Under the pieces are notes generated by a model that had not been told where the DNA came from, made no database searches, and worked only from the letters and a program-made list of their open reading frames with translations. This document shows positions 36,026 through 49,670 of a stretch of 64,000 nucleotides of DNA, one piece after another (position 1 is the stretch's first letter; the number at the start of each line of letters is the position of its first letter). The DNA is from Podarcis cretensis. Taxonomy: Eukaryota. Where the stretch lies: NCBI GenBank assembly GCA_951804945.1, contig OX638161.1, forward strand, positions 26,598,001 to 26,662,000. Direction: 5' to 3'. The position numbers and the translations under genes are program-made.

Positions 36026-36265
36026 ATGACTACTTACTCCAGCCGCAGCCAGTCCTTCTCTGGAGGGATCCAGGGTTCCCGAGGGGGGAGCCTGCGTAGC
36101 CTAGGCAGGTCTCCGACAGCATCGAGCATCTATGGGGGCACCCCCGCAAAGAACGGCCTGGCCTGGCGCTACGGGCAGAGCGGTGCGGAGGCGAACATCT
36201 TTGACATGAACGAAAAGGGCACCATGCAGAATCTGAACGACCGCCTGGCTGCCTATCTGGAAAGG
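36026..36265 (+). CDS. Type I (acidic) keratin, exon 1 (head and start of coil 1A); 9 coding exons give 410 aa; terminal, EIF1-adjacent member of the cluster
   Basis: Ser/Gly/Arg-rich head, then NEKGTMQNLNDRLAAYLER (type I helix-initiation motif); donor AGG|gtgagt. Orthology within the type I family cannot be fixed without a phylogeny. Confidence 0.93.
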
Positions 36266-37229
36266 GTGAGTAGCTGGAGTTCCCTAGCAGGGAAAATGGG
36301 TGCTGAGAACTGGCCTCAAGATACATGGGTGGTATAAATGCCCCTCAGGCTTCGCTTTCGGAAGCCAGAGGAAACAGGGGCAGGGCTTGATTTCTAAAGG
36401 GGACCCTGTTGCTCCTTCTGTGTTGGCAGCTGTGCCACAGAGCCGGCCCTGCCGTTGGCAGAGTGAGACATGTGCCTCGGGCAGCTGACTTTAGATGCAC
36501 GAAAGGGCAGGGAATTGCTACTTATTTTATTTAGATCATTACAGCTTCACACCCAGGGAGAAGAGCTCTTGTGGTGCTAAAACAACTTGGCCACTTTGCA
36601 CCTTGACTTAAGCATCATTTGCTGTTCTGCCTCAGGCAATAAAACAGCTTGGCTTGGGCTGGATCTGCTTCGCCATCTTCCCTGGAAGAAAACCCCAAAT
36701 TCACACACTCAGCATTCAGCAACCGTTTCAGAAATGTCAAACGTTTGCAAATGCAGTCCGTTCAACACTGTGAGATTCTTCAATAAATAACGGGGGGGGG
36801 GGGGGCATTATTTTGCCAAATGGAATTGCTTTATAACAAGTTTAGGCTCCCTACCATTCTCTAAATCCAACATAATGCATAACTGGAAAACTTGGGAAAA
36901 TAGGACTTATTCAGTTAGAAAGGCCAAGGACTGAACTGTTAGTGCAAAATGTTATTCCTTTATTGAGATCAGTACATTGCTGGAAGTACTTTTGGGGTTC
37001 TATCTATCAATGTTTAAATTTGTATATTGTCATATCTCCAGGACTCAGAGCAGTTACAACATAAACTGCTTGATTTCTGTGTTAGCTTGTACTTGATTTG
37101 GGGGTAGGATTTCCTGGACCCAGTGCATTCCACGTGGACCCCCCTCCCCAGACTACTGGCAAGAGCTGCTGCTAAATGTGCATATATTAGCTTAGATTAG
37201 CCTACCTTACAAGGCTGTTGTTATTTGTA

Positions 37230-37441
37230 CAATGGTACCTCGGGTTAAGAACTTAATTTGTTCTGGAGGTCCGTTCTTAACCTGAAACTGTTCTTAACTT
37301 GAGGTACCACTTTAGCTAATGGGGCCTCCCGCTGCCGCGCGATTTCTGTTCTCATCCTGAGGTAAAGTTCTTAACCCGAGGTACTATTTCTGGGTTAGCG
37401 GAGTCTGTAACCTGAAGCGTCTGTAACCTGAGGTGCCACTG
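37230..37441. mobile_element. MITE, family A
   Basis: TIRs and TA flanks. Confidence 0.82.
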
Positions 37442-39022
37442 TACTTAACTGATTTCTTACCTACCCTTCACTGTAATGTCTCAGGGCAGGTTGCAGCAAT
37501 ATGAAATAATAATTATTAAAAGCAATTTAACAACAAATCACAGGAGTAGGCAGGATCCTATTGCAAAGATAAAAGTGGAAGGAGGGGGAGGATAACGTAC
37601 ACAATGTTGAGTTCCTGTGTAGAAAAGCAAAATGCAAATATGTAATGTCATTTGCAGCAGCCCCCTTGCTTTAATTGCAATGTTTCGTAGTCCTGACATG
37701 TACAGGAATATATAAATAAGGCTTCCAACCCTGATAAATTGCAACATGCAAAATAAAAATAAAAAATACTCTGAATATGCGCAGTTTCAAACTTTGGCGT
37801 TTGAATTATCGACTCTCAGCCTAGCCTACCTCACAAGGCTGTTGTGAAGCCTTCAGCTCCCGGGAGTGAAATCAATATCCAAATATAGAACAGGAAGGAA
37901 GATATACATGTGATTTCACAACTCTCCGCGAATCACATACACAAACCATTTAGTCATCCTTCACCAACAAAAAAGGATCCTTGTGCTAAAGTACATCCCG
38001 CAGAGATTTTATTTTTCTGCAGCTGCAAGGTGTTTGATTACTTATTTTCTCTTTTCTCTTTTTGCTTATGGTTACTGCATATGAATTAATAACAGCCCAG
38101 TCATGACAAGTGGGCCATTAGTGGCTGGGTGAAGGACATTGCATTAGTGACATTTTTCCTAAGTAGGGAAGAAACACCTGGCTTTTATTTCAAGAGAATT
38201 ACTTTTGAGTAAAACAAACCAAAGCCAGCAAATTCTGTTTATTCTGTAGAGGCAATACATTTTGGGAGTGAACGAAATAATATGGAAATGGGGGAAAGTG
38301 CTTAAGCACAGACACCCCCAGCGTCTTCCTCTGTCCAGCATTTGCCTAGCTGCAGTAGCCTCTGCTAGTTTTTCTGCTGCTCTTGGAGGGTCCCCCCTGA
38401 GTCCCAGGTGGGGATGGTCTGTATCTCTTGCTCTAATAGCTTAGCAACCACTGTTAAGTGTCCTTAATGACGCTGAAGCCTTAGAGCTGCCTCCACATTT
38501 TGTGCTCTAACTTTCTTCAGAGATCTCCAACTGACTTACTTTTTTAAAAAAAATGAAAGTTAAGAATATGGGTCCCCTGTTGGCCCATGGCCTGGTCCCC
38601 ATGTACCTTCTGTAACACCCCACCACCGCTGTTGTCCCTGGGTCAGATGTTGTGAATAACCCTCCATGACATTCACAATTCATTCCCTGCTACTATTCTC
38701 CATGACCGTCACTTACGGATCTTTTTAAAAAGGCAAGGAACTATCCCTCTAATATCAAACTTAGGTGGGTCCTGTGCTGATCAGCTTGCAAGCAAAACAA
38801 GACCATTAAAAAAGTAAGGCGGTTGTCGTTGTTTTGCATCCTTGGAAGGGTTCCTTAGGTTTGTGGAAGTATGTTTGTTAATTGAGTGAAATAGTTTAAA
38901 CAACCGGGGAAGGACTTGTGTTCATTAGCTTCCTGGACCTACAGAAAGTTGAGAGTATCAACTGAGAAAAGGAAGGTAAAGAAGGAAATTCTCTGTTTAC
39001 ACCCCAAAGCTATTGCAAGCTA

Positions 39023-39265
39023 CAGTGGTACCTCTGGTTAAGTACTTAATTCGTTCCGGAGGTCCGTACTTAACCTGAAACTGTTCTTAACCTGAAACAC
39101 CACTTTAGCTAATGAGGACTCCCGCTGCTGCTGCCCCACCGAAGCATGATTTGTGTTCTTATCCTGAAGCAAAGTTCTTAACCTGAAGCACTATTTCTGG
39201 GTTAGCGGAGTCTGTAACCTGAAGCGTATGTAACCTGAAGCGTCTGTAACCCGGAGGTACCACTG
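39023..39265. mobile_element. MITE, family A
   Basis: TIRs and TA flanks. Confidence 0.85.
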
Positions 39266-39395
39266 TACCCTCTAGTGAGTAGACTGAAAAGTCAAAACAG
39301 CTTACAGGAGAGCACAGCTGTCCTTGGTGGGGTTCAGCAACCCCTTTATTCTGATATCCTCACCACCCTGTTTGATTTCCTCTGCCATATGCTAG

Positions 39396-39922: not shown

Positions 39923-40268
39923 GTAAGGACTCTTCATCCTAGCTGCCTCTTTCTGTCCATCATGCATATACAGTAATAGCCAAGGCAACACGATGACCAA
40001 ATAAAATGATACAATATCAATATACACTCTTTATATAATATGAAATATATGAAATCACATAAACAGAAAACTTGCGAATCTCTGAAAGCCACAGAATATG
40101 CACTCTTAATGGATTCTCTTGAAAACATAAAACCAAATAAATGTAAGTCTTCTAAGTCTCTGAAAGTCTTTGTAGACTATGCAAGTCTCTGAAAGAAGCA
40201 ATGTAACATAACTTTATGACCACTGCTCCATAGCAATTGTTGTTATACTTTTTCCCCTTCACCATATA

Positions 40269-40494
40269 CAGTGGTACCTCAGGTTAAGAACTTAATTCGT
40301 TCTGGAGGTCTGTTCTTAACCTGAAACTGTTCTTAACCTGAGGTACCACTTTAGCTAATGGGGCCTCCTGCTGCTGCCGCACCGCTGGAGCACGATTTCT
40401 GTTCTCATCCTGAAGCAAAGTTCTTAACCTGAGGTACTATTTCTGGGTTAGCGGAGTCTGTAACCTGAAGCGTATGTAACCCGAGGTACCACTG
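40269..40494. mobile_element. MITE, family A, nested in the inverted-repeat element
   Basis: TIRs and TA flanks. Confidence 0.87.
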
Positions 40495-40530
40495 TAGATG
40501 GGTTTTTGAAGCATTTCTGTATCCTTCTGC

Positions 40531-40585
40531 TGTGCTGAAGAAGAATTCCACGAAACAGTGGGTATATCCGGAATCACTGTTCACA
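40531..40585 (+). ncRNA. Type I hammerhead-ribozyme-like motif (minimal, possibly degenerate)
   Basis: TGTG-CTGAAGA-AGAATTCCAC-GAAA-CAGTG(loop)CACTG-TT-CACA: core boxes plus paired stems I and III. Confidence 0.55.
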
Positions 40586-41645
40586 ACGTCCATTTGCGAA
40601 CTACTTCGGCTGCGTTGGACACCATAAACAAAGCTTTTCAGCCTGTTTTCACCAGATAAGAATATGTTACATTGCTTCTTTCAGAGACTTGCATAGTCTT
40701 CAAAGACTTAAAGAGACTTATAAGACTTAGGTTTATTTGGTTTTATGTTTTCAAGAGAATCCATTAAGAGTGCATATTTTGTGACTTTCAGAGATCCGTA
40801 AGTTTTCTGTTTATGTGATTTCATGTATTTCATATTATAGAAAGAGTGTATATTGATATTGTATCATTGTATTTGGTCATCGTGTTGCCTTGGCTATTAC
40901 TGACTATTGTTTGCAACACAGGGGTTAAATTGTTTGGTTACAATTGGGGTGCCTTGAATGATGGTCAGGGGTGCTGCAGGCAACAATGGCCTCTGTCCCT
41001 CTTTCCTTCCCTCCCTCCTCTGATGCCCTCTTGCGTCTCTGTCTCCCAAAGGCTTGCACAGCTGTTGGTTGCAGCAGCCCTGGTTACAAGCTCCAAAGGT
41101 CAGGGAGTATGGTCAGGGAGTAGAAATAAAATAAAAAATGAAACAAATTGGCTGCACTGTTTACCCCACATCCCCGTAGGGTCAACCACCCAGCTGATGA
41201 CATGTGTCGGCCCTGGGCCTTGGAAGATGGGAAGGATCTGCTGCCATAAAGGCTACACAGAGGCACAAATTAAAAAGAGGTTTTCCTTCTTAGAATTTTC
41301 CTTATTCTATAGCAATTTATCCAGCTTAATAAAAACTTCAAGATGCTGAAAAGTCACCATCGGGGGAAAAAAGAAAGATGATCCACCTTGCTGTTGGTTA
41401 AGGCTGAACAGCAGATTTAGGGCCCCTCCAGATCTAGGGATTTAGGGAGGTTGTCTGGTTACTTATCACCTTGGCTCAGGGGTCGCATAACTCCATCCCC
41501 TCCAGAATTTCTCCAATGGAAATAGGGACGTCCTAAGGAAAAGCGGGACATTCCAGGATCAAATCAGAAACTGGGACGGTTTCTGAAAATCTGGGACTGT
41601 CCCTGGAAAATAGGGACACTTGGAGGTTCTGAGATTAGGGGCTCT

Positions 41646-41690
41646 CAACAACAACAACAACAACAACAACAACAAAAACAACAACAACAA
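41646..41690 (+). repeat. (AAC)n microsatellite
   Basis: Seen directly. Confidence 0.9.
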
Positions 41691-41872
41691 CTTATTAATA
41701 CCCCGCCCATCTGGCTGGATTTCCCCAGCCACTCTGGGCAGCTTCCAACAAAATATTAAAAAGAGACAGCACAACCAGAACCTCAAGCATTGTCCCAGCA
41801 CACCCTCAGTTATGTGGTTTTTCAGAGCCTTGGCTGGAAAAATGCTGCACAGCCCCTATTTGCCCACTTCAG

Positions 41873-48844: not shown

Positions 48845-49670
48845 GAGATTGTAGAGTTGAGAGGGTCCCGAGGGTCATCTAGTCCAGCCCCCTGCGTTGC
48901 AGGAATCGCACCTAAAGAATCTCCGCCAGAAGATCATCAAACCTCTGTTTAAAAAACTCCCAGTGAAGGAGAGTCCATCACCTTCTGAGGTAGCCCATTT
49001 CGCCCTTGAACAGCTCTTATCATCAGAAAGTTATTCGTGATGTTCAGTCAAAATATTCTTTCTTGGGATTTGAATCCATTGGAACAGGAGAAACAAACTT
49101 GTTCCATCTTCCACGTGGCAGCCCTTCAGATATTTGAAGATGGCACTCATGTCTCCTCTCAGTTTCCTCGTTCCCAGGCTAAACATACCCAATTCTCTCA
49201 ACTGTTCCTCATAAGGCTTGGTTTCCAGACCCTTGCTCATCTTGGTTGCCCTCCTCTGCACACGTTCCAGCTTGTCAATACAGTGGCAGCTCGGGTTAAG
49301 TACTTAATTTGTTCTGGAGATCTGTTCTTAACCTGAAACCTGTTCTTAACCTGAAGTACCACTTTAGCTAATGGGGCCTCCTGTTGCCGCTGTGCTGCCG
49401 CTGCACAATTTCTGTTCTCATCCTGAAGCAAAGTTCTTAACCCGAGGTACTATTTCTGGGTTAGCGGAGTCTGTAACCTGAAGTGTCTGTAACCTGAAGT
49501 GTGTGTAACCCGAGGTACCACTGTATCCTTCTTAAATTGTGGTGCCCAGAACTGAACACAGCATTTCATGTATGGTCTGACCAAAGCAGAATAGAGTGGT
49601 CTCAGGACATTTCTGTTGATGCAGCCTAGAATAGTATTAGCTGTTTTTGCTGTGGCATCACACGGTTGAC
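48845..49670 (-). mobile_element. CR1 LINE 3' fragment, interrupted by a family A MITE (49281-49523)
   Basis: [27 protein letters not shown]...[15 protein letters not shown]. Confidence 0.85.

Follow-up and report, generated by a model that had tools for sequence, protein, structure and literature searches.

A hammerhead-like motif in a keratin intron of Podarcis cretensis, very probably the pLTR hammerhead of a truncated, spliced Neptune-type Penelope-like retroelement

In metazoans, the minimal hammerheads (min-HHRs) of Penelope-like retroelements (PLEs) are of type I and lie in the pLTR, mostly as single motifs in truncated copies; they combine CUGANGA and one extra base with G10.1-C11.1, GAAA and an NUH triplet, frequently GUU, as well as a helix I of 2-5 bp and, where helix III lies, a palindrome (Cervera and De la Pena, 2014, PMC4209133). 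Across the 44 published metazoan rows compared here, GUU occurs in 12/44, helix I counts 2-6 bp and helix II 3-8 bp in 44/44, with a minimal helix III (PMC4209133). These hammerheads are reported as inactive as monomers and weak as dimers (PMC4209133), and the variants of Lunse et al. (2017), as cited elsewhere, are 'with a short stem III' and cleave as dimers (PMC5737381, PMC6765202, PMC6466107). As for the triplet, GUC and GUA are cleaved fastest and GUU is cleavable (PMC3138052). In fungi and protists, EN-deficient telomere-associated PLEs carry type I hammerheads with a large helix III, for which a monomer fold is possible and one of which was shown to be active; the available text of that paper describes none with a 1-bp helix II (PMC4209133). 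Regarding vertebrates, Neptune and Poseidon have been reported (bioRxiv 10.64898/2026.07.22.740005), and a CxxC linker marks Neptune and Nematis (PMC8557442). The Poseidon element PAc of Anolis carolinensis, a reptile PLE of the Penelope/Poseidon clade with a pLTR hammerhead, has an ORF starting at stem II and a tail linked to two RT start sites, and its hammerhead needs PLE protein (Frangieh et al., 2024, PMC11167929). In Drosophila virilis Penelope, the end of a spliceosomal intron lies just 5' of the motif and supplies helix I, and spliced and unspliced copies are both found (PMC4209133). Besides these elements, the amniote RECK and C10orf118 hammerheads are intronic, of type I, probably repeat-derived and conserved across species (PMC3088659).

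The window considered here, that is the whole 64-kb stretch of DNA that was analysed, holds a motif on the + strand whose letters, as a sequence read-out, agree with the hammerhead-like motif first described there. Its spelling, core boxes, stem III, GUU triplet, 4-bp stem I and type I topology are all confirmed on this strand, and so are the vestigial stem II and the palindrome in loop III that the preliminary description had pointed out. The motif comprises the following parts:

40531..40585, + strand: type I hammerhead motif overall, assigned from its core, stems and GUU triplet and from a model built on other subfamilies
40531-34, + strand: 5' strand of stem I, UGUG
40535-41, + strand: core box CUGAAGA
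40542, + strand: extra A after CUGAAGA
40543 / 40551, + strand: single pair of stem II, G10.1-C11.1
40552-55, + strand: core box GAAA
40555-61 with 40574-80, + strand: stem III, 7 bp including A15.1-U16.1 and a closing G-U
40567-72, + strand: UCCGGA palindrome in the 12-nt loop III
40581, + strand: U17 of the GUU triplet, with a predicted cut after 40581
40582-85, + strand: 3' strand of stem I, CACA, giving a 4-bp stem I

All the core requirements of a type I hammerhead, namely CUGANGA, GAAA, A15.1-U16.1 and NUH, are present. Round this core, stems I and III are able to pair and stem II amounts to one G-C, the predicted probability of stem I being at most 0.05. The traits listed above for the min-HHRs, from type I and the pLTR location to the extra base, the frequent GUU, the short helix I and the palindrome, recur here, but the published layout is reversed: helix II has 1 bp and helix III 5-7 bp with a 12-14-nt loop, and in the window motif itself (1 bp and 7 bp) the palindrome sits in the loop, rather than in a minimal helix III beside a long helix II. 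The preliminary description held that PLE hammerheads often have a reduced stem II, whereas it is stem III that is reduced, and stem II that is long, in the published metazoan ones (PMC4209133, PMC5737381). Type I, a large helix III and a possible monomer fold bring the motif close to the fungal and protist hammerheads. No description of a PLE hammerhead with a 1-bp stem II and a long stem III was found in the literature searched, where Lunse et al. (2017) or supplements could contain one; as far as this search shows, the architecture is a mildly new variant of the PLE pLTR hammerhead. Loop II of the motif could pair with loop III (AUUCC/GGAAU), but this pairing was rejected as incompatible with coaxial stacking of stems II and III.

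In the 64-kb window, a motif descriptor fitted to the 40531..40585 motif itself gave 1 match, whereas 100 shuffles averaged 0.01 (1/100 reached 1). A covariance model derived from 13 motifs of other subfamilies matched 40529-40587 with 54.7 bits (E about 1e-13; next best 13.1), which, as a sequence comparison, shows homology and not structure. The Infernal/Rfam check proposed in the preliminary description turned out negative, the 9 weak matches up to E=10 in 40000-41100 including no hammerhead; a genome-wide search with RF00163 gave no match anywhere, its 14 controls also remaining without match, so that this search is uninformative. In folding stability, the 75-nt motif region does not exceed shuffles (z=+0.44). 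The missing Rfam match and this folding score could be taken as signs of a chance look-alike, a reading of vanishingly small probability that is refuted by the family context: genome-wide, the core pattern has 576 matches vs 15 for its reversed control and the long-stem-III pattern 146 vs 1, and the motif occupies a fixed position behind the PLE endonuclease. Descriptor and Rfam searches overlook the form with a long stem III and a 1-bp stem II.

The motif belongs to a truncated PLE copy, 39971-40941, whose body occupies 40206-40941 on the + strand and which lies within a keratin-like gene, as follows:

39923..41872, + strand: intron 3 of the type I keratin-like gene, assigned from splice junctions, Filament matches and keratin 10
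39971..40210, - strand: inverted, 5'-truncated second copy of the 3' part of the element, reverse complement of 40663-40902, with no tail and no hammerhead
40206..40268, + strand: pLTR sequence upstream of the pLTR intron, start point of many spliced copies
40269..40494, unstranded: MITE with terminal inverted repeats, bounded by a TA duplication (40267-68 / 40495-96) and unrelated to the PLE
40497..40502, + strand: end of the pLTR first exon, the junction 40502/40503 marking where a GT..AG intron of about 125 nt was removed
40503..40530, + strand: spacer of 28 nt between splice junction and motif, compared with sister subfamilies
40586..40902, + strand: AT-rich remainder of the pLTR, as far as the first of the two 3' end points of the family
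40903..40941, + strand: 39-nt PLE tail, on one end only, with two discrete 3' end points across copies

An inverted 5'-truncated copy accompanied by a 30-40-bp tail was described for PLEs by Craig et al. (PMC8557442), and these hallmarks of EN+ PLEs, i.e. the inverted 5'-truncated neighbour copy, the 30-40-bp tail and a pLTR intron kept in some copies, are all found at this locus and in its family. The inverted arm is 94.6% identical to 40663-40902 over 240 bp (13/240 differences), and inverted arms of other lengths occur in other family copies. The 3' ends of the family fall at two points about 39 nt apart, inverted pairs usually having one of each. The family is an interspersed repeat, with 88-100% identity in the 40 copies scored of 291 candidates. 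Its removed pLTR intron was identified by comparing the unspliced copy L042, which retains GT..AG, with spliced copies; sorted by pattern, 54 distinct copies divide into 38 spliced, the window copy among them, 13 unspliced and 3 other. The coexistence of intron-retaining and spliced copies shows that the element passed through RNA. The start of the spliced copies within 40206..40268 is likely near the transcription start. Of note, pairing between the two arms (39971-40902) would fold the keratin pre-mRNA into a hairpin of 240 bp, 95% paired and with the motif in the loop, which might serve as an editing substrate.

The MITE at 40269-40494, which we take to be of Tc1/mariner type, is nested inside the PLE copy, uninterrupted PLE copies without it being found. 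PLE copies elsewhere are often interrupted by this same MITE, of which the window holds five copies (1100-1329, 37228-37443, 39021-39238, 40269-40494 and 49278-49500) and which accounts for most of the RNA-read depth in the region.

Unspliced family copies extend further 5', and the family copies L119 and L120 reach into the end of a GIY-YIG endonuclease (EN), with a C-terminus 44% and 55% identical, respectively, to that of the L175 ORF. The latter is 41% identical to the 749-aa ORF of L176, and frameshifted RT pieces are also present in L175. In the 749-aa frame, RVT_1 scores above cut-off and GIY-YIG just below it (22.1 vs 22.6). An ORF with RT and GIY-YIG upstream of the pLTR thus exists for the family and is absent from the truncated window copy. 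The CxxC linker between RT and EN is present in the relatives L130, L134, L175 and L176, window-family copies ending before it; judged by this linker of its relatives, which is common to Neptune and Nematis, the element would be Neptune-type. A hammerhead core follows the end of the EN match in 16/30 EN loci, some of which overlap, mostly 285-530 nt downstream. For the window's own subfamily, no intact ORF was found; among the stop-to-stop frames of at least 150 aa round the first 52 loci, no PLE RT ORF was recognised by eye, and the RT-like frames there are of other retroelement types. At L176:2835-5081 (-), on G000:C12, the 749-aa Neptune-type RT-EN frame runs uninterrupted and is followed by a short-stem-III hammerhead, and close copies of this element in L156-L165 suggest a younger family.

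Delivery by a PLE, as proposed in the preliminary description, is strongly supported by the inverted arm, the tail, the spliced intron, the family and the GIY-YIG link of longer copies, all of which, together with the boundaries of the copy, its family membership and the nested MITE, are matters of observation. Very probably, the motif represents the pLTR hammerhead of a Neptune-type PLE, left in keratin intron 3 within a 5'-truncated spliced copy and, standing alone, likely to cleave little or not at all. Spliced element RNA would have been reverse-transcribed from the two tail-defining start sites, yielding a direct copy with a tail and an inverted copy that is shorter. The window family shares with PAc a reptile host, a hammerhead in the pLTR and a tail with two end points, and differs from it by the CxxC linker, by the absence of an ORF after the motif in the 350-nt 3' part and by the lack of a stem II helix. 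As in D. virilis, spliced and unspliced copies occur with an intron end 5' of the motif; unlike D. virilis, the window family has a 28-nt spacer between the two, so that its stem I is independent of splicing. Compared with sister subfamilies, the opening of this spacer (40503-40517) likely derives from a duplication of the 5' core half that has since decayed, and the spacers of subfamilies A, C and D likely consist of such a decayed version. In L207, the 5' half of the core stands intact as a tandem duplicate just 5' of the core.

The preliminary description read GUU and the short stems as signs of weakening or death, and suggested looking for GUC and a longer stem I in the consensus. Neither is the rule in this family: U17 is present in 52/54 copies, and stem I has 3 bp in most of them vs 4 bp in the window copy, position 40585 being T in 33 and A in 17 of the 54 copies. 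The core is intact in 41/54 copies, and between 40531 and 40585 the window copy deviates from the family majority at 40585 only. GUU, a short stem I and a 1-bp stem II are therefore family traits and not decay, and the window motif is decayed no more than its family. Decay from GUC was accordingly rejected for this family; GUC and GUA do occur in sister subfamilies.

The host gene lies on the + strand with its ATG at 36026, so that the motif is sense to the keratin pre-mRNA; three of the four keratin exons scanned (3/4) match Pfam Filament, and keratin 10 is the closest PDB match of exon 4. The placement of the motif in keratin intron 3 on the sense strand, the numbering of which counts the split first coding exon of the host, agrees with the preliminary description. 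An extra 3.1-kb intron (36266-39395) splits this first coding exon in the coil 1A region, where the usual type I keratin layout has no such intron. RNA reads from 4 raw runs (6-13% of each) give zero depth over keratin exons 2-4, and 1-2 reads over the motif in 2/4 runs, which could derive from any family copy; the runs are thus uninformative on cleavage.

The sense orientation, together with the intact core, the 4-bp stem I and the 7-bp stem III, might suggest an active, perhaps co-opted cis ribozyme by which some of the keratin pre-mRNA is cut and expression lowered or modulated. All motif positions are kept while the arms differ at 13/240, and Xenopus introns are depleted of retrozyme copies, which the authors ascribe to selection against genic insertion (bioRxiv 10.64898/2026.07.22.740005). 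Such a ribozyme is very unlikely, however. Drift since insertion is about 2.7% per arm, which leaves a chance near 0.2 of no change in 55 nt, so that the unchanged 55-mer is unremarkable and no sign of selection. In 34 copies retrieved with flanking queries, changes amount to 6/333 (1.8%) in the core and 134/4002 (3.35%) in the flanks, a core rate that is not clearly lower; the divergence by region over all 54 copies (core 5/534) was set aside because many of these had been found with core-containing queries. Neither these rates nor the divergence of the arms reveals selection on the window copy, and in this respect the motif, which sits in a recognisable repeat copy, departs from the conserved RECK and C10orf118 hammerheads.

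Regarding the fold, the penalty for imposing stems I and III round an open core is +4.9 to +9.5 kcal/mol, varying with the flanks, and the predicted share of the active fold is 1e-4 to 1e-7, under folding models that ignore tertiary contacts. The intact-ORF family's motif incurs a penalty of the same size (+4.9/+7.3 kcal/mol), which hence does not mark the window copy as dead. The length of stem III in the window copy suffices for a monomer. For a dimer that pairs through stem III and UCCGGA, the predicted energy is -29.3 vs 2 x -9.9 kcal/mol, and stem I is missing from this minimum-energy form. Neither the descriptor nor the covariance model detects a second or partner motif in the 64-kb window, and the layout of a non-LTR retrozyme, with tandem hammerhead units, is not seen there either, with one motif and no second direct copy. 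With the active fold predicted to be rare, no partner in the window and no selection seen, the cleavage of the keratin pre-mRNA or domestication envisaged in the preliminary description is unsupported. For the pLTR hammerhead of a Neptune-type PLE, the motif would instead be maintained by selection on active elements, in which RNA trimming would occur only with help, be it from the protein that the element encodes or from another copy of the motif paired via the CCGG palindrome in loop III; inside the keratin intron neither helper would be available, and the motif would drift neutrally.

Variation beyond the family was assessed on 75 motifs from fetched loci, a set of related rows of which about 40 come from the window family. 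N7 is A in 45, U in 25, C in 3 and G in 2, and N17 is U in 54, C in 18 and A in 3, never G; G10.1-C/U11.1 is kept in 72/75 and G2.1-C/U1.1 in 70/75. A free N7, an N17 that is never G, a fixed core and a fixed G10.1-C11.1 form the pattern that catalysis would demand. About eight subfamilies, the window's included, have a stem III of 5-7 bp with CCGG or CpG-decayed forms in a loop of 12-14 nt, and stem II in the long-stem-III subfamilies has 1 bp in most and up to 3 in one. In the intact-ORF sister family, stem III is short, as in the min-HHRs, and contains GGCC, stem II has 2 bp and stem I 5 bp, and the triplet is GUC or GUA.

This pattern runs against the view that the form with a long stem III and a 1-bp stem II had already lost catalysis in the source elements, its survival reflecting another role, such as binding a protein or a splicing-related structure, or mere descent; this view is doubtful and yet deserves real weight. 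In subfamilies B, C, D, E and H, 1-2 bp of stem I are left, and in the predicted folds of subfamilies C and D the CUGA box pairs with the bases after the cleavage site. Covariation among 15 subfamily representatives is not significant, stem III being invariant and 3 stem I pairs changing on both sides, as many as 115/500 shuffles reach; the 3' cells of two misaligned short-stem-III rows were set aside for this test, and both rows were left out of alignment A4. With no covariation above shuffles and a stem I of 1-2 bp in several subfamilies, the long-stem-III variant may have been degenerating in source elements. Besides, mutants of the anole hammerhead were without effect on insertion in vitro (PMC11167929). 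Conversely, one may picture a Neptune lineage with an undescribed hammerhead (1-bp stem II, long stem III and CCGG kissing loop), active with the element protein or as a loop-III dimer, gated by splicing in sister subfamilies and with sense intronic copies, the window's included, able to cut host pre-mRNAs, but this is unlikely.

As the pLTR hammerhead of a Neptune-type PLE, the window copy alone is of little weight, the genome holding some hundreds of such hammerhead relics. The family as a whole has modest use: since about eight subfamilies keep the catalytic core with stem II shrunk to one pair, spliced and unspliced copies standing side by side, it offers a natural series for testing the role of PLE hammerheads and the minimum stem II of a natural hammerhead.

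In several sister subfamilies (L146, L156-L165, L164, L168, L196 and L199), an intron-end-like AG abuts C3 and stem I is made from the intron end, as is helix I in D. virilis Penelope (PMC4209133). In the intact-ORF family, stem I measures 5 bp when unspliced and shrinks to 2 bp in L184, a spliced copy, as though the ribozyme were turned off by splicing. At L209:1842-4160, a rearranged subfamily-D insertion holds one spliced and one unspliced motif on the same strand, 2.26 kb apart, with no RT or EN match between the two. Finally, L186 (G000:C1:16739521-16739547) and G000:C1:117612131 carry cores whose stem II is GC-rich and canonical in length, and represent a different hammerhead family.
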